The notes under the pieces were generated by a model that was not told where the DNA came from, did not search any database, and saw only the letters and a program-made list of their open reading frames with translations. A stretch of DNA of 64,000 nt, from positions 1-64,000 of IMG/VR virus record IMGVR_UViG_3300021185_002167; one strand, written 5' to 3'. This DNA comes from a virus. The position numbers were made by a program, and so were the translations under genes. This document shows, piece after piece, positions 9,432 through 38,553 of this stretch. The first letter of the stretch is position 1, and each line of letters starts with the position of its first letter.

Positions 9432-11141
9432 ATGGCATTTCAAGTATCACCAGGCGTTCAGGTCAATGAGATCGACGCTACGAATGTAGTCCCAGCAGTA
9501 TCAACCAGCATTGGTGGATTTGCAGGAGCATTCAACTGGGGTCCTGTAGACCAAGTGATTACAGTAGGTTCAGAAAACGAACTTGCTTCAACATTTGGCG
9601 CTCCAGACGATTCCACAGCTAAATACTTCTTAGTAGCAGCATCTTTTCTTAAGTATGGCAATGCTCTAAAAGTAGTTCGAGTAGCTTCCGGTCATTTAAA
9701 CGCGACCGCGCAAGGTACAGGACAGCTGATAAAAAATGATGAAGATTATGTGAATAATTACGCTGACGGAAGTCTAGCCTTTGGTAATTGGGCAGCTAAA
9801 CATCCAGGAGTACTGGGTAATAGCATTAAGGTATCAATGGTTTCACAAGGTATATCAACGTATACTGACTGGACCTATGCTGACAACTTTGATGGCGCAC
9901 CGGGAACATCAACAGCAGCAACTGCAGTAGGAGTCACTAATGACGAACTACACGTAGCTGTTATAGATGAAGACGGCGCTATTTCAGGAACAGCTGGTAC
10001 TATATTAGAAACTTTTGGTTTCTTATCTCAAGCATCAGACGCAAAGAAAGACGACGGCACAACTAACTATTATAAAGATGTTATTAACAATCAGTCTAAT
10101 TATATTAGATGGATTGACCATGACACTAACTTATCTGAAGCAGGATTTACTTTAGCAGCAGCTAAAGCAGCTAATACTAATTCAGAAGGAGTAAGTACAT
10201 TTAATACTCATACTGCAGCTCTCGAAGCTTCACTTTCAGGTGGAACAGACGATAACGCTCCAACAACTGGAGAAATTGCATTAGGGTATGACTTATTAGA
10301 AGATGGCGAAACAGTAGATGTAAATCTATTATTTGCTTCTCCTGATGTCGATGGTTCAACAACAATTGCTAACGATTTAATATCAATAGTCAACAGTCGT
10401 AAAGATTGTATGGCTTTTGTATCGCCACCAATTGATGATTCAGTAAACACTTCAACACCACACACTGATGTTTTAGTTTTTGCAGACGCATTAACATCTA
10501 CTTCTTACGCTTCATGTGACTCAGGCGCAGTCTATGTATACGACAAATATAACGACGTATATAGATGGATTGGAGCTGCAGGTCATCACGCAGGATTATG
10601 TGCTAATACTGATTCAGTAGCAGATGCATGGTTCTCACCAGCAGGCGTAAATAGAGGTCAATTGTTAGGCATAACTAAATTAGCATACAATCCTACTAAA
10701 GCACAAAGAGACGCTTTATATAAAGGCAGAGTTAATCCATTAGTATCACTACCTGGACAAGGTACAATATTATTTGGTGACAAAACTTTATTAAGCAGAC
10801 CTTCAGCTTTTGATAGAATTAATGTTAGACGACTCTTCATCGCATTAGAGAAAGCGGTTAGCACAGCAGCTAAAGCGCAACTATTCGAGTTTAACGACGA
10901 ATTTACAAGAGCACAGTTCAGAAATTTAGTTGAACCGTTCTTAAGAGACGTCAAAGGTAGACGTGGACTTACAGACTTTTCAGTAGTTTGTGACGAAACT
11001 AACAACACTAGCGCAGTGATTGATGGTAATAAATTTGTAGCTGATATCTTTATCAAGCCTAACAGATCTATTAACTTCATAACATTGAGCTTTGTAGCAA
11101 CGAGATCCGGAGTTGAATTCTCCGAGATTTCAGGTTCATAG
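9432..11141 (+). CDS. gp18: Tail sheath protein gp18
   Basis: SPGVQVNEID, WFSPAG, GDKT...FDRINVRRLF, FEFNDEFTR. Confidence 0.96.
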   Translation: MAFQVSPGVQVNEIDATNVVPAVSTSIGGFAGAFNWGPVDQVITVGSENELASTFGAPDDSTAKYFLVAASFLKYGNALKVVRVASGHLNATAQGTGQLIKNDEDYVNNYADGSLAFGNWAAKHPGVLGNSIKVSMVSQGISTYTDWTYADNFDGAPGTSTAATAVGVTNDELHVAVIDEDGAISGTAGTILETFGFLSQASDAKKDDGTTNYYKDVINNQSNYIRWIDHDTNLSEAGFTLAAAKAANTNSEGVSTFNTHTAALEASLSGGTDDNAPTTGEIALGYDLLEDGETVDVNLLFASPDVDGSTTIANDLISIVNSRKDCMAFVSPPIDDSVNTSTPHTDVLVFADALTSTSYASCDSGAVYVYDKYNDVYRWIGAAGHHAGLCANTDSVADAWFSPAGVNRGQLLGITKLAYNPTKAQRDALYKGRVNPLVSLPGQGTILFGDKTLLSRPSAFDRINVRRLFIALEKAVSTAAKAQLFEFNDEFTRAQFRNLVEPFLRDVKGRRGLTDFSVVCDETNNTSAVIDGNKFVADIFIKPNRSINFITLSFVATRSGVEFSEISGS

Positions 11142-21018: not shown

Positions 21019-22076
21019 AGGTAGCGATACTTAATGACACACACTGTGGAGTAAGAAACTCAAGTGACATATTTTTACAATATCAAGATAGATTCTATTC
21101 AGAAATATTCTTTCCATATTGTGAAGAGCATGGTATAAAGAATGTATTACATTTAGGAGATTATTATGAGCATCGTAAGTTTGTTAACTTTAAAGCTCTT
21201 CAAGCTAATCGTAAACATTTTCTAGAACCATTACGCGATCTTGGTATGACTATGGATATTATCCCTGGTAATCATGACGTGTATTTCAAAAACACAAATG
21301 AACTTTGTAGTTTAAAAGAACTCCTAGGTTACTTTACGTCTAATGTCAATATTATCATGAAGCCAACAGTGCTTGATTATGATGGTCTTGGTGTTGCAGT
21401 AATACCTTGGATTAACAATGGTAACTACGAAGAGTATACAAAGTGGGCTCTTAACTGTAACGCTCCTATTCTTGGAGCTCATTTAGAGTTAAAAGGATTT
21501 GATATGATGGCAGGAATGCCTAATCCACATGGTATGAGTGCTGATGTATTTTCAAGATTTGAAATGGTATTATCAGGTCATTTCCATACAAGAAGTTCTC
21601 AAGGTAACGTAACGTATCTTGGTTCTCAAATGGAGTTTACTTGGGCTGATGTTGATGACCCTAAGTTCTTTCATGTACTTGATACTGAAACAAGAGAGAT
21701 TACACCAGTGCGTAATCCTATTACTATGTTTAAGAAAGTAATCTATGATGATACAAAAACAGATTATGACAAAGTAGACATATCAGAGTATGAGAAAAAG
21801 TTCATCAAGCTGATTGTTATAAATAAAAATGACTTGTATATGTTTGATAAGTTTGTTGATAGATTACAAAACATTGAGACATATGAACTTAAGATAGCTG
21901 AAAGCTTCGAAGAGTATCTGGGAGAAAGCGTAGAAGACGAGAAAATATCCCTTGAAGATACAAACAACCTTTTAGATACTTATGTTGATGCAGTCGATAC
22001 CGACTTAGATAAAGAACATCTTAAAGTCGAATTGAGAAAACTATATACTGAAGCACAGAATCTAGAGGTAGTATGA
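21015..22076 (+). CDS. gp47: Recombination nuclease gp47 (Mre11/SbcD-like)
   Basis: DTHCG, HLGD, GNHD, SGHFH. Confidence 0.95.
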   Translation: MKVAILNDTHCGVRNSSDIFLQYQDRFYSEIFFPYCEEHGIKNVLHLGDYYEHRKFVNFKALQANRKHFLEPLRDLGMTMDIIPGNHDVYFKNTNELCSLKELLGYFTSNVNIIMKPTVLDYDGLGVAVIPWINNGNYEEYTKWALNCNAPILGAHLELKGFDMMAGMPNPHGMSADVFSRFEMVLSGHFHTRSSQGNVTYLGSQMEFTWADVDDPKFFHVLDTETREITPVRNPITMFKKVIYDDTKTDYDKVDISEYEKKFIKLIVINKNDLYMFDKFVDRLQNIETYELKIAESFEEYLGESVEDEKISLEDTNNLLDTYVDAVDTDLDKEHLKVELRKLYTEAQNLEVV

Positions 22077-23788
22077 TACATTTTAAATCATGTGAGTGGA
22101 AGAATTTTCTATCCACCGGAAGCGATCCAATAAAAATATTATTAGATAAAACACCATCAACGTTAATCGTTGGTCAGAATGGAGCAGGTAAATCAACTTT
22201 ACTCGATGCTCTTTCATTTGCACTCTTTGGTAAACCACATAGAGATATTAAGAAAGATCAGATGATTAATAGTATCAATAAAAAAGGTACATTAGTGACT
22301 GTTGAAATGACGATAGGAAGTCATGAATTTAAGATTATAAGAGGTATCAAACCAGGTAAGTTTGAAATCTATCAAAATGGTAACCTAATTAACCAGGCTT
22401 CCAATGCAAGAGATTATCAGAAGTTCCTTGAACAGAATATACTTAAGCTTAATCATAAATCATTTCACCAGGTAGTAGTACTTGGTTCATCTTCGTTTAT
22501 ACCATTCATGCAATTACCTGTTTGGTCAAGAAGAAACATTATCGAAGACTTATTAGATATCAATATATTCTCTAAGATGAATACATTGTTAAAAGAAAGA
22601 AACTCTAAGATTAAAGATGAGCTTACTGATATTAATCATCAAATCGATATCTTTAAAACAAAGATGGATTCTCAAAGTAAGTATATTAAAGACTTACAAG
22701 AACTTAATGATGATCAGATCGATAAGAAGAGATCGAGTATTGATGTCCATAAAGAAGAAATCAATAAACTATTTGATGAAAGTAAAACACTTGGTAAGAA
22801 TCTATCAGCTTCAATATCAACTGAAGAAAAACATAGTGGAGATATCGTAAAGAAAATGTCTCAACTTGATTCTTATGATATGCAATTTAATGCTAAAATT
22901 AAATCGCTTGTAGATGAGAGTAGATTCTATGAAGAGAATGACCAATGTCCTACATGCGATCAAGAAATAGAAGAGTCTAAAAAGGTCGAAAAGATAGAGT
23001 CAGTAAAACTTAAAGCAAAAGAAATTCAAACAGCTAAAGATGATTTATCTAAGAATATTGCTGAAATGAAAGCTGAACAGCAAGAAGTATCTAATAGTCT
23101 TAATAAGCTTCGTCAAAAACAATCAAAGATTAATAGTAACAACGATGCAATTGCGTTATTACAGAAAGAAGTTAATAAAGTACAAAAAGAGATTGATGGT
23201 CTACAAGGCCAAACTGGAGACGTATCAAAAGCAAAAATCGAACTTAGAGATTTAAGAAAGAATAAAGATACATCGACTGAAAAGAAACTCGAGTATGTAG
23301 AAGAAAGAACCTATAACGAAGTCATAGGAGAAATGCTTAAAGACACTGGTATCAAAACTAAAGTCATTAAACAATATCTACCTGTAATGAATAGATTGAT
23401 TAATCAATATTTACAGATACTTGATTTCTTTGTATCGTTTCATTTAGATGAAAACTTTAATGAGACAATCAGGTCAAGACATCGTGATTCGTTTAACTAT
23501 GCTTCTTTCTCTGAAGGAGAAAAACAAAGAATCGATTTAGCTTTACTCTTTACTTGGAGACAAATTGCTAAGATGAAAAATAGCGCAGCTTCGAATCTAC
23601 TCATATTAGACGAAACGTTTGATTCAAGTTTAGACATCGATGGTGTTGATAACTTAACTAAGATTCTCGATACTCTTGACGATGGAAGCAACGTGTTTAT
23701 CATATCGCATAAAGGCGATGTCTTAGAGAATAAGTTTCGAAGTAAGATCGAATTCTTTAAAGAAAGAAATTTCTCAAAGATTAAGTAA
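22073..23788 (+). CDS. gp46: Recombination ATPase gp46 (Rad50/SbcC-like)
   Basis: GQNGAGKST, CPTC hook, FSEGEKQRID, LILDE, ISH. Confidence 0.96.
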   Translation: MIHFKSCEWKNFLSTGSDPIKILLDKTPSTLIVGQNGAGKSTLLDALSFALFGKPHRDIKKDQMINSINKKGTLVTVEMTIGSHEFKIIRGIKPGKFEIYQNGNLINQASNARDYQKFLEQNILKLNHKSFHQVVVLGSSSFIPFMQLPVWSRRNIIEDLLDINIFSKMNTLLKERNSKIKDELTDINHQIDIFKTKMDSQSKYIKDLQELNDDQIDKKRSSIDVHKEEINKLFDESKTLGKNLSASISTEEKHSGDIVKKMSQLDSYDMQFNAKIKSLVDESRFYEENDQCPTCDQEIEESKKVEKIESVKLKAKEIQTAKDDLSKNIAEMKAEQQEVSNSLNKLRQKQSKINSNNDAIALLQKEVNKVQKEIDGLQGQTGDVSKAKIELRDLRKNKDTSTEKKLEYVEERTYNEVIGEMLKDTGIKTKVIKQYLPVMNRLINQYLQILDFFVSFHLDENFNETIRSRHRDSFNYASFSEGEKQRIDLALLFTWRQIAKMKNSAASNLLILDETFDSSLDIDGVDNLTKILDTLDDGSNVFIISHKGDVLENKFRSKIEFFKERNFSKIK

Positions 23789-23858
23789 GGGGCGCGACTA
23801 GGGTCAATCTCCTACTTGCAATAGGAGATACTGTGGGGCAGAACCACACGCTCCACCA
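23789..23858 (+). ncRNA. Atypical tRNA-Ala(UGC)-like / tmRNA tRNA-domain-like RNA
   Basis: Acceptor GGGGCG/CGCTCC with G3:U70, discriminator A, encoded CCA; 8-bp stem with loop CTTGCAA; T-arm TGTGG-GGCAGAA-CCACA. Confidence 0.7.
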
Positions 23859-23864
23859 CTCTTT

Positions 23865-23935
23865 GGAGCTGAAGTTCATGTGGAATGAACGACCTAAAGT
23901 TAGGTAAGTCGAAGGTTCGAATCCTTCCAGCTCCA
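23865..23935 (+). ncRNA. tRNA-like RNA lacking a 7-nt anticodon loop
   Basis: Acceptor GGAGCTG/CAGCTCC; D-arm GTTC..GAAC; ACCTA-AAGT-TAGGT; T-arm GAAGG-TTCGAAT-CCTTC; no encoded CCA. Confidence 0.75.
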
Positions 23936-23950
23936 CTTCCATTATGTGAG

Positions 23951-24024
23951 AACAACACTTTCTCACAATTATTTTCATTAATTTCACAAAAACCGTTTAC
24001 ATTTGCGCTGAAATAGTGTATAAT
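23951..24024 (+). promoter_or_regulatory. 37-bp repeat copy 1 plus early promoter
   Basis: AACAACACTTTCTCACAATTATTTTCATTAATTTCAC 23951-23987; TTTACA 23996, 17 nt, TATAAT 24019. Confidence 0.85.
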
Positions 24025-24048
24025 ATACATATAAGATAAGGAACAACT

Positions 24049-26214
24049 ATGATTAAACACAAAAGCACTCTCGCAAAACTTCTTGCTAAAGAAAATGTTA
24101 CTGTACAATATGGTAACTATTCAACAGCATGGTTTGACATTAAAGATAGAATACTCGGTCTTCCAATGTGGAAAGATATGGGTAGTGATGTAAGTGATTT
24201 ACTTATTGGCCATGAAGTTGGCCATGCGTTATTCACACCATACGAAGGTTGGCATGATAGCCCTGAAAAGCTACAAGGCTGTCCACGTACATATATCAAT
24301 GTAATCGAAGATGCAAGAATCGAAAGACATATCAAAGATTCTTATATTGGTCTAGTTGGTCCTATGGCAAGAGGCTATAAAAAGCTTTTTGATGATGGCT
24401 TCTTTGGAGAAGAGTTCACTACAATGAACTGGGACAAAGTAAAGCTTATCGATAAAATTAATCTTAAAGCTAAAGTTGGAGCTCATCTTGACGTTCCTTT
24501 AGACGACGTAGAGATTGAATACTACAACAGGGCAATGACAACTGAAACATTCGAAGAAGTTCTTGACCTAGTAAGAGATGTTCTTGCGTATACAAAAGAA
24601 AACGAAGAAGAGCTTATTGAAAAGCCAGAGCCACAAGAAGACGAGCCTGAAGTAGGTGATGACGAAAATAATAAAGACGAAATGACTCCACAAGGTCATG
24701 ACGATGCTGAAGGCGATCAACCTAAAGAAACTTTGTCAAACGAATCAGATGAAACAGAAGTTGAAGATGATGCACCACAAGAAAAGCAAAATGCTCAGAA
24801 TCCAGTAGATGATGACGTTGCAATTTCAGACTTAAACTTTAGACAAAGAGAGAAAAACTTACTCGATATAAGAGAAGACAATACACAAACTCTTATTGGT
24901 AACGAATTCAATAAAGACGTTTTTAATAAGATTGTTATACCTTATAAAGATCTTGCTCAACAAAGAAAAGAGAATTCTAATAAAAACCAAGAACATTCAG
25001 AATGGCTTGCTGATTTAGTAAACAAACAAGCTCTTGGTTACAAAGCGTATAGTAAAGCAGTAAAGAAAGATGTTAACTACGCAGTAAAAGAATTCGAAAT
25101 GAGAAAAGCTGCTTTTAGATACTCAAGATCTCAAACAGCTAAGACTGGTTCTATAGACGTAAACAAAGTATGGTCATATAAAACTAATGAAGACATATTC
25201 TCAAGAGTAACTCAGTTAGCTGATTCTAAAAATCATGGTATGGTTATGATTATAGACTTTTCAGGTTCTATGTGCGATGTCATGAACCATGTTTTAGATC
25301 AGCTCTTTCACCTAGTAACATTCTGTAAAGCAGTTAATATTCCATTCGAAGTATATGGATTCACAAGCTGTAATACATTACTTGGTGGTGGATATTCATG
25401 GGATGGCGATACTATCGACACTTCAAAACAACTTGACTCTGAGGTATATCACCAAAAACTTTCAATGCCACAGCTTGTAACGTCTAAGCTTAAAAAAGCT
25501 GACTTCGAAGAAGCAATGGAACATATCTTTTTAAGAAGTAGTCTCAGTTCAGAGCATTATGGAGAAAGATCTATTATGTCTCCAAACGAAGAGTATGGTT
25601 CAACACCTCTTAACGAAGCTCTTATTGCTTCACATAGAATTATTGATAGCTTTAAAAAGACTCATAATGTCGAAAACATGAATTTCGTTGTTATTTCAGA
25701 TGGAGATACTAATGGTACTTCGATTTGTAAAAAAGAAATTGGTGTGAACAGAGTTAAGACTCACCCAAGCTATTCAAGACATACTGAAATGAATATTAAC
25801 ATTATGGGTAAATCTGTAAAGCTTGCTGGCAATAGAAGAGAAGGTACTCAGTCTTTACTTAACAACCTTGCTAAAAGATTTAATACAACTAACATTGGAT
25901 TCTTTATTGCTAATGATGGTTCACAATTTAAAAGTAAAATCGCTGAAACACATGGTGAGTACTGGTTAGATGATGAACTACAAAAAGAGTACAATAAAGA
26001 ATTTAACAAGAAAAGATGCGTAACTCTTAAAGGCTTAGGCTATAAAGAACTTTATATTCTTAAGAGTAAAAATCTTTCAGTTGAAACTACTGACTTTAAT
26101 CCAGCTGAAGAAGCATCAAAAGGTCAGTTAACAACAGCATTTAAGAAGTTTAGTAAGTCTAAAAAGCTTAACAAAACACTATTAACTAATTTTGGTAAGA
26201 TAGTTGCTGAGTAA
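24049..26214 (+). CDS. Metallopeptidase-like + VWA protein (CobT-like partner of the AAA+ ATPase)
   Basis: HEVGH...NVIEDARIE; acidic linker; MIDAS DFSGS, GSTPL, ISDGD. Confidence 0.85.
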   Translation: MIKHKSTLAKLLAKENVTVQYGNYSTAWFDIKDRILGLPMWKDMGSDVSDLLIGHEVGHALFTPYEGWHDSPEKLQGCPRTYINVIEDARIERHIKDSYIGLVGPMARGYKKLFDDGFFGEEFTTMNWDKVKLIDKINLKAKVGAHLDVPLDDVEIEYYNRAMTTETFEEVLDLVRDVLAYTKENEEELIEKPEPQEDEPEVGDDENNKDEMTPQGHDDAEGDQPKETLSNESDETEVEDDAPQEKQNAQNPVDDDVAISDLNFRQREKNLLDIREDNTQTLIGNEFNKDVFNKIVIPYKDLAQQRKENSNKNQEHSEWLADLVNKQALGYKAYSKAVKKDVNYAVKEFEMRKAAFRYSRSQTAKTGSIDVNKVWSYKTNEDIFSRVTQLADSKNHGMVMIIDFSGSMCDVMNHVLDQLFHLVTFCKAVNIPFEVYGFTSCNTLLGGGYSWDGDTIDTSKQLDSEVYHQKLSMPQLVTSKLKKADFEEAMEHIFLRSSLSSEHYGERSIMSPNEEYGSTPLNEALIASHRIIDSFKKTHNVENMNFVVISDGDTNGTSICKKEIGVNRVKTHPSYSRHTEMNINIMGKSVKLAGNRREGTQSLLNNLAKRFNTTNIGFFIANDGSQFKSKIAETHGEYWLDDELQKEYNKEFNKKRCVTLKGLGYKELYILKSKNLSVETTDFNPAEEASKGQLTTAFKKFSKSKKLNKTLLTNFGKIVAE

Positions 26215-37886: not shown

Positions 37887-38553
37887 AGATATAGCAGAGA
37901 TATTTACTAATGCTCTTGAAAGCAAACAGTTTACTAAAGATAAAACTGGTTGTAGAACAATTGAAATACTCGGTGCTTCTTTTCTTGCTGATAAGCCGTC
38001 AATATTTGGCGCTGTACAACAAAACTATGTTGATGCAGAAATTGAATGGTATGAATCTCGTTCTACTAACATTAACAAACTTGCCGAAATCTATGGAGTT
38101 CCAAAAGCTCCACTAGCTTGGATATATTCAGCTAATGACTATGGCGAAATCAATTCTAATTATGGTAAGCTTATCTTCGGTAAGAAATACTTTAAACAAT
38201 ATAAAAGAGTTCTTCAAGAATTATCTGAAGTAAACCCTGATTCACGTAGAGCGTCTATGATATATCAAAGACCAAGTATTTGGCATGAGTTTGACGAAGA
38301 TGGTAAGAATGATTTTATCTGTACAAATGCAGTAACATATTACATTCGTGATAAAAAACTACATTGCGTAGTTCAAATGCGTAGTAATGACGTTGTGTTT
38401 GGTTATAAGAATGATTATGCTTGGCAGCATTATGTTCTTAACAAATTAAGAAATGACTTGTATTACGATGGATATAAACTTGATGAAGGTGATATCATTT
38501 GGCAAGTACAAAACTTACATGTATACGAGAGACATTTTGACCTTATCAAATAA
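37873..38553 (+). CDS. gp42: dCMP hydroxymethylase (T4 gp42-like, thymidylate synthase fold)
   Basis: DKTG.RTIEILGASF, GEINSNYG, DSRRA, catalytic DFICTN, MRSNDVVFGYKNDYAWQ with Asp at the dCMP-specificity position (Asn in TS), LHVYERHF. Confidence 0.9.
   Translation: MQTTKDIAEIFTNALESKQFTKDKTGCRTIEILGASFLADKPSIFGAVQQNYVDAEIEWYESRSTNINKLAEIYGVPKAPLAWIYSANDYGEINSNYGKLIFGKKYFKQYKRVLQELSEVNPDSRRASMIYQRPSIWHEFDEDGKNDFICTNAVTYYIRDKKLHCVVQMRSNDVVFGYKNDYAWQHYVLNKLRNDLYYDGYKLDEGDIIWQVQNLHVYERHFDLIK

Follow-up and report, generated by a model that had tools for sequence, protein, structure and literature searches.

Genomic location and structure of the element

The DNA analysed here, hereafter the window, is a stretch of 64,000 nucleotides (nt) covering positions 1 to 64,000 of the IMG/VR virus record IMGVR_UViG_3300021185_002167. 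It is part of a 128-kb virus record (G000; 71% complete according to CheckV) from an uncultured marine T4-like phage. The element in question occupies positions 23789–23858, directly behind gp46, and is a candidate for a working but strongly reduced alanine transfer RNA (tRNA-Ala) with the anticodon UGC. The gene upstream and the parts of the element are as follows.

22073–23788, + strand: gp46, SbcC-like recombination nuclease subunit, whose stop codon abuts the RNA gene (open reading frame (ORF) list)
23789–23858, + strand: compact tRNA-Ala(UGC)-like gene, 70 nt including the encoded ACCA (minimum free energy (MFE) cloverleaf)
23789–23794, + strand: 5′ strand of the acceptor stem, 6 base pairs (bp) with 23849–23854
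23796–23805, + strand: D hairpin, 3-bp stem GAC/GUC (23796–23798 / 23803–23805) and loop UAGG (23799–23802)
23807–23829, + strand: anticodon arm, 8-bp stem (23807–23814 / 23822–23829) and 7-nt loop CUUGCAA (23815–23821)
23832–23848, + strand: T arm, 5-bp stem UGUGG/CCACA (23832–23836 / 23844–23848) and loop GGCAGAA (23837–23843)
23849–23858, + strand: 3′ strand of the acceptor stem (23849–23854), discriminator A (A73, 23855), and encoded CCA (23856–23858)

The first base of the element, 23789, follows immediately on the TAA stop codon of gp46 (23786–23788), and the cloverleaf uses up all 70 nt. The MFE and centroid structures given by RNAfold are both this cloverleaf (−27.0 kcal/mol, z = −3.21), and none of 200 dinucleotide shuffles folded as well. 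The four arms stand in tRNA order (acceptor, D, anticodon, T), which is backed by covariation in an alignment fitted to the model structure. A single linker base connects the acceptor and D stems, one base lies between the D and anticodon stems, and the variable region has 2 nt. Compared with a standard tRNA, the acceptor stem has 6 bp instead of 7, the D stem 3 bp instead of 4, the D loop 4 nt instead of 7–11, the anticodon stem 8 bp instead of 5, and the variable region 2 nt instead of 4–5, and GGCAGAA replaces T-psi-C-R-A in the T loop. A previous annotation made from the letters of the window (the sequence-only reading) had called the element a hybrid of tRNA-Ala and transfer-messenger RNA (tmRNA). 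Its coordinates and description (start after the gp46 stop codon, 6-bp acceptor stem with G3:U70, 8-bp anticodon stem, UGC in a 7-nt loop, T loop GGCAGAA, discriminator A, and CCA) are exact throughout, and RNAfold agrees with them.

The anticodon UGC is located at 23817–23819. Its loop, CUUGCAA, follows the tRNA rule of U33 and a purine at position 37 and is the same in all five distinct variants of the element described below. Both marks of alanine identity are present, the discriminator A73 and the acceptor wobble G3:U70, formed by G 23791 and T 23852; the G:U pair is kept in 10/10 compact relatives. The G3:U70 wobble and A73 are the established marks of a substrate of alanyl-tRNA synthetase (AlaRS), as described in PMC3968760 and PMC3590771.

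Conservation and distribution

Pattern scans found copies of the element only directly behind gp46. The copies are located on viral contigs (L097, to which L115 is identical, L133, L140, and L153) and on metagenome contigs (L155, L159, L160, L166, and L167); in the metagenome scan, 6 of 13 matches were true copies and 7 were chance matches. In the five distinct variants, 110 of 110 stem cells are paired, with two compensatory pairs and one change from U:A to U.G. The middle pair of the D stem is A:U in most copies and G:C in L140 and L159, and the third pair of the anticodon stem varies among copies between C:G and U:A. The variants also differ at one T-stem pair (the U:A to U.G change), two variable bases, and one base of the CCA. 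The CCA is replaced by CGA in L153 and L155, so the encoded CCA is not essential. Covariation in related phages was a check proposed in the sequence-only reading, and the copies show compensatory changes, not random decay.

A comparison of the window with L097 illustrates the constraint on the element. The element is identical at 67 of 70 positions, the last 300 nt of gp46 at 228 of 300 (51 of 100 at third codon positions), and the 70 nt on the 3′ side of the element at 19 of 70, which is unrelated DNA. Because the element keeps 67/70 positions while the adjoining third positions of gp46 keep 51/100, neutral decay is excluded, and the comparison indicates that the element is under strong selection.

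Searches of the named phage collection at the DNA level gave no relative with the window interval 23000–25000 or with L232:978–1055 as the query, and the interval 23700–24050 gave only T-arm matches of the second tRNA-like gene downstream. In the best 80 gp46 loci, a set that did not contain L097, L133, L140, or L153, blastn-short found no match to the element. The model R1, which scores 103.5 bits on positions 23789–23858, found in these loci only the window itself and a 17-bit match to a canonical tRNA-Ala (L004). Among these 80 loci, the nearest relatives by gp46 therefore lack the element. A scan of cellular genomes gave three matches, none of which had a cloverleaf, and thus no cellular source was found. 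Assembled contigs from RNA libraries span 23030–23839 and 23408–23876 and bridge gp46 and the element, which indicates presence only, not transcription, transcript ends, or level; the sequencing data compared (three RNA libraries and one DNA run, all as assembled contigs) were left out of the evidence.

A compact class in five phage lineages

A class scan was performed whose pattern fixed 5′ GGGGC, an AGG within the D region, and the T loop, with a loosely defined 3′ strand; the anticodon loop was left free. It returned 77 stretches, and a T stem and an acceptor stem were both present in 11 loci. Ten of the 11 loci carry compact genes, with nine distinct sequences; the eleventh, L367, is described with the tmRNAs below. 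The compact genes belong to five lineages (the window family, L302/L327, L328, L326, and L360) that have little stem sequence in common, and R1 gave 78 bits for L302/L327, 46 for L328, 43.5 for L360, and 35 for L326. Their D hairpins have 3–4 bp and a loop of UAGG, AAGG, or AAGGG, and their variable regions have 2–3 nt. The 7-nt loop YUUGCAM with the anticodon UGC is present in 5/5 D-hairpin lineages, although it was no part of the scan pattern. Together, the D and anticodon stems have 11 pairs in 5/5 lineages (3+8, 3+8, 4+7, 4+7, and 4+7), a constant sum that a fixed distance between anticodon and elbow would demand. The acceptor and T stems total 12 bp (6+6 or 7+5) in four lineages and 11 bp (6+5) in the window family. 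We propose to define the class by a D hairpin of 3–4 bp with an NAGG(G) loop, an anticodon stem of 7–8 bp, the sum of 11, a variable region of 2–3 nt, a GGCRGWA T loop, an Ala acceptor, and UGC; all five lineages have every one of these features.

The nine distinct sequences from the class scan and L160 from the metagenome scan were combined into a ten-sequence alignment. In this alignment 97.3% of the cells are paired, compared with a shuffle mean of 78.5% and with 40–51% when the partners were slid. Two-sided changes occur at 14 of 22 pairs, among them 3/3 pairs of the D stem and 7/8 pairs of the anticodon stem, and none of 500 shuffles reached any of these measures. Acceptor pair 6 changes from G:C to A:U in three of the ten sequences. 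The pattern indicates that the core has been rebuilt with compensation, the short D hairpin and the long anticodon stem together supplying 11 pairs.

Two related RNAs with Ala-type acceptors lie within large phage tRNA arrays at L175:~10072–10146 (+) and L222:~10261–10335 (+). Each contains a GUGU/ACAC hairpin, and another stem covaries between the two (CUCGG/CCGAG versus CUAGG/CCUAG) and is closed by a 10-nt loop, AAAGCAAGGG, that is conserved, as is a stretch reading AAGGGCAGUAC; neither RNA shows a clear T stem or an anticodon loop.

tRNA arrays and codon usage

The compact relatives outside the window family sit within phage tRNA arrays. In G002, a complete phage of 118,695 bp, the only array consists of Pro, Trp, Gln, Thr, Met, Ile, compact Ala, and Asn; spacers of 3 nt separate the compact gene from tRNA-Ile(GAU) on its 5′ side and from tRNA-Asn on its 3′ side, and no second tRNA-Ala was found in the complete genome. 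In the 14 loci with such genes, none of the 101 tRNAs called by ARAGORN is a tRNA-Ala. The usage of Ala codons in G000 per 1000 codons is 28.9 for GCA, 31.1 for GCU, 3.5 for GCG, and 2.9 for GCC, and GCA, GCU, and GCG together make up 95% of the Ala codons of the phage.

At L326:2776–3007, which corresponds to ~38,030–38,261 of G002, the compact Ala(UGC) gene is the next one after tRNA-Ile(GAU). The same Ile-Ala order occurs in the spacers of bacterial rRNA operons.

Response of standard detectors

ARAGORN reported no tRNA in the 64-kb window or in the whole 128 kb at default settings, and it was still silent on the element at -ps80 and in mitochondrial mode. An Rfam scan at gathering thresholds gave nothing at 23789–23858, and the Rfam tRNA model (RF00005) had no match to the element at E ≤ 10 on 351 or 85 bases. 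The sequence-only reading had named a score as an ordinary tRNA as the outcome that would speak against it. Because ARAGORN and the Rfam tRNA model both pass the element over, its own test does not refute it. The Rfam tmRNA models, which it had also proposed as a check, likewise miss the element. RF04321 (tmRNA_permuted) gave 9.1 bits on 23832–23873 (threshold 47, E = 9.8), an ordinary T arm nearby received the same ~9 bits from the permuted-tmRNA model, and no tmRNA above the Rfam threshold was found anywhere in G000.

A variant elbow in ordinary phage tRNAs

In the modelled fold, the corner of the L is formed by the D loop UAGG and the T loop GGCAGAA, which replace the usual GG / T-psi-C pair. 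The GGCRGWA loop at first looked specific for Ala acceptors because the early scans demanded an Ala-type 3′ strand. This idea was refuted by acceptor-free and D-arm-anchored scans, which found the loop in tRNAs for Ile, Val, Pro, Phe, Asn, Met, and His. The acceptor-free hairpin scan, which covered 3.4 Mb of collected DNA, located it in tRNAs of L304 that were read by eye as His(GUG) and Phe(GAA), and in more non-Ala cloverleaves in L223 and L241. A scan anchored on the canonical D arm gave 25 distinct matches with a perfect T stem, and all 25 are complete cloverleaves. Their identities are Ile(GAU) (7), Ala(UGC) (4), Val(UAC) (3), Pro (2), Phe (2), Asn (2), Ile(UAU) (2), Val(GAC) (1), a Met-type CAU (1), and Ala(GGC) (1), covering seven amino acids overall. 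GGCAGAA, the loop of the element, is the commonest form (13/25), and in 15 of the 25 the D loop is shortened and contains UAG.

Normal-sized Ala genes with the variant loop are also present, in L304/L315 (canonical body, 52 bits with the Rfam tRNA model) and in L232/L267/L309, L292, L305, and L316. None of the 101 ARAGORN-called tRNAs mentioned above has a GGC-type loop. In L304 (also L315, 452-kb contig), cloverleaves with GGCRGWA T loops were read by eye as Ala(UGC), His(GUG), and Phe(GAA), and none of the 19 ARAGORN calls in L304 is Ala, His, or Phe. Since these variant-loop tRNAs are uncalled, ARAGORN under-counts the tRNA sets of such phages.

The loop is therefore found in 25 ordinary tRNAs as well as in alphaproteobacterial tmRNA, so UAG[G/U] / GGCRGWA is an alternative elbow and not a mark of tmRNA. 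These comparisons point to a building block that is common to phage tRNAs and alphaproteobacterial tmRNA and is no proof of tmRNA nature.

Comparison with alphaproteobacterial tmRNA

A scan for GGCRGTA followed after seven bases by GCTCCACCA gave at least 120 matches; the counts in the next three sentences are among the matches listed. A perfect 5-bp T stem is present in 113/120, GGAC stands ahead of the T stem in 104/120, and 99 of these 104 have a matching 5′ acceptor strand within 400 nt downstream, which is the permuted tmRNA gene layout. AGG is located at bases 12–14 in 91 of the 99 two-half tmRNAs, and among these 91 in-register 5′ pieces, 84 have UAGG at nt 11–14 and 90 have G18 A19 C20. 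The 5′ consensus is GGGGC-N-G-A-A-[C/A]-U-A-G-G-A-U-C-G-A-C. The Rfam model of alphaproteobacterial tmRNA (RF01849) gave 109–142 bits in 3/3 of the loci tested. The GGCRGUA T loop and the missing D stem, which the sequence-only reading had named as features of this tmRNA, are thus confirmed on actual sequences.

The element has UAGG at bases 11–14, in the same register as alphaproteobacterial tmRNA. Its first 17 nt agree with the common AAC variant of tmRNA at 13 positions, and its T loop agrees with GGCRGUA at 6/7 positions, an elbow that 25 ordinary phage tRNAs also share and that is therefore non-discriminating. The junctions AUCGAC and GGAC are missing, AAU following the 3-bp D stem and AUAC preceding the T stem, and the element has no mRNA-like domain, tag frame, helix 2, or pseudoknots; another tRNA-like gene begins 6 nt onward. 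The likeness to tmRNA proposed earlier is thus real in the elbow but not specific to tmRNA. A tmRNA-derived origin was not borne out, as ordinary tRNAs share the T loop, the junction motifs and the mRNA part are missing, and the tmRNA score is ~9 bits.

Only parts of this signature were found in print: PMC1168896 describes a mitochondrial tmRNA of Reclinomonas in which GG takes the place of UU in the T loop, and a change of U342 to G in Caulobacter. The string GGCRGUA was not found in the literature searched. As described in PMC3968760, SmpB binds the elbow, and contacts of the D and T loops are needed for its binding; SmpB is reported there to keep the D loop unpaired and to take up the space that the D and anticodon stems fill in a tRNA. 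An SmpB gene (PF01668) was found in 0/5 phage records and in 10/14 control genomes, which has no bearing on binding.

The locus L367:165–237 (+) encodes a 73-nt unpermuted RNA that resembles a bare tRNA-like domain of tmRNA. In order, it comprises GGGGCCG, AAGUAGGAUCGAC, a hairpin capped by GUAG, GGAAC, a T arm whose loop is GGCAGUA, and CGGCUCCACCA. It keeps AUCGAC and the GGAAC junction and has neither a tag region nor an anticodon loop. More than 100 permuted tmRNA genes of the alphaproteobacterial type are present in IMG/VR viral contigs (L176–L294), with a gap of 17–229 nt between the CCA and the 5′ piece. They may be prophage attachment sites or phage-borne tmRNAs.

The gp46 slot and its contents

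The product of gp46 shows 47–50% identity in tblastn searches to SbcC-like/gp46 proteins of Phage C48C1, Pelagibacter phage HTVC008M, and cyanomyophages. The following features lie downstream of the element.

23865–23935, + strand: second tRNA-like gene, 6 nt downstream of the element, with a defective anticodon loop of 6 or 4 nt (Rfam tRNA model, 43.4 bits)
23945–23977, + strand: terminator-like hairpin (23945–23967) and T tract, which would close a gp47-gp46-RNA transcription unit (consensus scan)
23996–24024, + strand: promoter TTTACA-17-TATAAT of the next gene (ORF 24049–26214; consensus scan, 11/12 matches)

The promoter forms the downstream edge of a tRNA slot, and in relatives, too, the slot is followed by this promoter and gene. 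The gap between gp46 and this gene (23789–24048 in the window) and its counterparts in L001–L024 form a hot spot of tRNA cassettes upstream of the same promoter. The slot contents were read by eye in these 24 gp46 loci. L004, L016, L018, and L024 contain a canonical tRNA-Ala(UGC), which indicates that the compact gene stands where a normal tRNA-Ala(UGC) stands. Other slots contain tRNA-Thr(UGU) or tRNA-Lys(UUU), or two tRNAs; several are empty, and that of L013 holds an internally deleted tRNA relic. The slot tRNAs start directly after the stop codon of gp46 or share one base with it. In L097 (position 3858), L140 (11915), and L160 (6365), and also in L010 and L012, the final G of the TAG stop codon doubles as the first base of the tRNA. 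Where the G is shared with the stop codon, cleavage by RNase P would strip the gp46 message of its complete stop codon and potentially leave a non-stop mRNA.

The second tRNA-like gene has a good acceptor stem, D arm, and T arm (TTCGAAT). Its anticodon arm, ACCU-AAAGUU-AGGU, forms either a 6-nt loop or a 4-nt loop on a 5-bp stem, and ARAGORN calls the gene only at a lowered threshold, with a 2-base 'anticodon'. It probably shares a transcript with the element and could be decaying or specialised. The counterparts in L133 and L166 have the 6-nt loop CUUGUU, and that in L007 has the 7-nt loop CUUAGUU with the anticodon UAG on a body with a short variable arm.

Interpretation

We propose that the element is a working but structurally minimised tRNA-Ala(UGC), and we assign this reading a probability of about 0.6 from the sequence comparisons above. 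It draws on the conserved identity elements and anticodon loop, on arm lengths that compensate and so preserve the spacing of anticodon and elbow, on the tRNA-Ala position that the gene takes in its slot and in arrays, on an elbow also present in ordinary tRNAs, and on the codon usage of the phage. The element would be transcribed as the tail of the gp47-gp46 message, which would end at the hairpin 23945–23967. RNase P would cut at the 5′ G beside the stop codon, and 3′ trimming would proceed to the encoded CCA. The host alanyl-tRNA synthetase would then charge the element through G3:U70 and A73, and the product would decode GCA, GCU, and GCG. Three functions had been offered in the sequence-only reading, namely a decoy for SmpB or AlaRS, an anti-trans-translation factor, and a nuclease-resistant Ala tRNA; the last, an Ala tRNA that is perhaps nuclease-resistant, fits the evidence best, the decoy and anti-trans-translation ideas have no positive evidence and are minor possibilities, and the tmRNA-derived origin attached to them is not supported.

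Several points weigh against this proposal. The 11-bp acceptor/T helix of the window family is one pair short of the 12 bp of a standard elongator, and bacterial EF-Tu is sensitive to the length of this helix. The T loop is devoid of U54, U55, and A58, and the D loop has only 4 nt. With these loops, the element would still have to fold into an L that a bacterial ribosome accepts. The ten rows of the alignment were fitted to the model structure and pre-filtered for pairing of the T and acceptor stems; the D and anticodon stems, which hold 10 of the 14 covarying pairs, were unfiltered. Membership of the class is partly shaped by the queries, because several of these were restricted to sequences with an Ala-type acceptor, the T loop, or the anticodon loop. 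Finally, the slot does hold non-decoding relics, as the defective gene at 23865–23935 indicates.

Other explanations account for parts of the evidence. A decaying tRNA-Ala pseudogene that folds by chance would agree with the presence of relics in the slot (L013 and the defective 23865–23935) and with the rejection of the element by standard detectors. It is strongly disfavoured, as 67/70 positions are conserved beside third positions conserved at 51/100, all stem changes are compensated or wobble-compatible, and one architecture recurs in five lineages with differing stem sequences; the diverged flanks argue against the copies being assembly duplicates of one population. A signal for punctuation or stability of the gp46 message, in the form of an RNase P / RNase Z cut site or a protective 3′ structure, is very unlikely. 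The RNA abuts the gp46 stop in every copy, shares the G of TAG with it in L097, L140, and L160, and lies upstream of a terminator-like hairpin, and RNA-library contigs bridge gp46 and the element, which is weak evidence, being contigs only. However, ordinary tRNAs of relatives abut or overlap the stop codon alike, so the position says nothing specific. The anticodon loop, G3:U70, and CCA are conserved although a cutting signal needs none of them, and the other compact lineages lie within tRNA arrays, not behind ORFs.

The element could instead mimic tmRNA as a hairpin-closed tRNA-like domain that is alanylated, binds SmpB, and titrates, blocks, or hijacks trans-translation. The elbow matches that of alphaproteobacterial tmRNA (UAGG at 11–14, T loop 6/7, 13/17 of the first nt), and the loci used for comparison are true alphaproteobacterial tmRNAs (RF01849, 109–142 bits, 3/3 tested). 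SmpB binds the elbow and requires the D/T-loop contacts (PMC3968760), and hairpin-closed forms devoid of a tag exist, namely L367 and the jakobid mitochondrial tmRNAs described in PMC3590771. We nevertheless consider such a mimic distinctly unlikely. Ordinary phage tRNAs for seven amino acids have the T loop (25/25 matches, 15 with a UAG-containing D loop), and D and anticodon stems are present and covary where SmpB would sit (PMC3968760). The near-invariant AUCGAC and GGAC junctions are missing from the element; L367 keeps its junctions and has no anticodon loop, whereas every D-hairpin lineage keeps the UGC loop, and the Rfam tmRNA models give 9 bits at E ~10. An improbable alternative is a non-decoding decoy, a look-alike of tRNA-Ala that would take no part in translation but soak up a host factor directed at tRNA-Ala or at tRNAs generally, for example a defence nuclease that cuts the anticodon or T loop, or a modification enzyme. 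Retention of the anticodon loop and the Ala acceptor on a rebuilt body would suit recognition at these sites combined with resistance to cleavage elsewhere, and the 11-bp acceptor/T helix of the window family is non-standard. Defences that target tRNAs and phage tRNAs that counter them are documented (10.1101/2025.02.04.636281, PMC13096335). On the other hand, the constant 11 pairs of the D and anticodon stems (5/5 lineages) are a constraint of the ribosome type, the element fills the place of tRNA-Ala in arrays otherwise devoid of one, and ordinary tRNAs with the same elbow form whole parts of phage tRNA sets. We know of no defence system aimed at tRNA-Ala, although no search was made for one.

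Within the proposal of a working tRNA-Ala, we suggest that the variant elbow might change how a T-loop-reading host factor, for example a modification enzyme or a defence nuclease directed at tRNAs, recognises the RNA. A wider hypothesis, which we regard as speculative and improbable, is that alphaproteobacterial tmRNA and many unannotated phage tRNAs would share the elbow as a dedicated recognition module, read or left unread by one host factor (for example SmpB, a defence nuclease, or a modification enzyme that inspects the T loop). The compact Ala form would then be the smallest natural elongator-type tRNA of the bacterial world, serving during infection as a decoder of GCN codons and either as an Ala donor to stalled ribosomes or as a competitor of tmRNA-SmpB. 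In such a case, the module would mark phages of alphaproteobacterial hosts such as SAR11.

Comparison with known systems

The canonical tRNA-Ala(UGC) genes of L004, L016, L018, and L024 share with the element the first five acceptor pairs including G3:U70, A73, CCA, the 7-nt loop YUUGCAA, and the position abutting the gp46 stop. They are 76 nt long, whereas the element has 70 nt, and they have a TTCGA-type T loop instead of GGCAGAA. The element also differs from them in its 6-bp acceptor, single linker base, 3-bp D stem with a 4-nt loop, 8-bp anticodon stem, and 2-nt variable region, and the canonical L004 gene receives only 17 bits from R1. Alphaproteobacterial tmRNA (RF01849 / RF04321) has in common with the element the Ala acceptor with G3:U70, UAGG at 11–14, the GGCRG-A loop, and the encoded ACCA. 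Unlike tmRNA, the element has a covarying D stem and an anticodon arm and is unpermuted, and the junctions, helix 2, pseudoknots, and tag frame are missing.

The nearest printed work concerns the 8/4 and 9/3 cloverleaf 'allo-tRNAs' of bacteria and phages, which are of the Ser, His, Cys, and Sec types (PMC5389517). Like the element, they are non-canonical, lie in phage tRNA clusters, some of them in alphaproteobacterial phages, and are missed or mis-scored by tools; however, they alter the split of the 12-bp acceptor/T branch, which is a different change from that in the element (PMC5389517). The terms 'T-loop' and 'tRNAAla' do not occur in the main text of PMC5389517. In the literature searched, neither this compact Ala tRNA nor phage tRNAs with the GGCRGWA elbow were found described.

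More broadly, the results point to an alternative elbow that tRNAs share with alphaproteobacterial tmRNA and that a common tRNA finder overlooks. Because ARAGORN misses genes with the variant elbow, censuses of phage tRNAs, arguments from codon usage, and tRNA-based host assignments may be biased; tRNAscan-based counts in surveys of pelagimyophages (PMC7029224) are a possibly affected example. Were the elbow to help in evading or engaging a host factor, it would provide a new handle on the conflict between phage and host over tRNAs. The arms with compensated lengths would test the minimal core needed by the bacterial ribosome, EF-Tu, RNase P, and AlaRS, and compact, orthogonal-looking Ala tRNAs may be of practical interest for engineered translation.

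The architecture of the element resembles those of tRNA-Pyl and the mammalian mitochondrial tRNA-Ser(UCN). In both, a single base separates the acceptor stem from the D stem, the D loop is small, the anticodon stem is longer and the variable region shorter, and the T loop is of a non-T-psi-C type; they form a slimmed, compensated L that still decodes. They have a 6-bp anticodon stem and a 7-bp acceptor, and the element goes further, with 8 and 6 bp, respectively. It also differs from them in its Ala identity, its phage-borne location, and its UAGG/GGCAGAA elbow. If the proposal is correct, the element would be a counterpart in the bacterial world of the 'bizarre' mitochondrial and pyrrolysine tRNAs.

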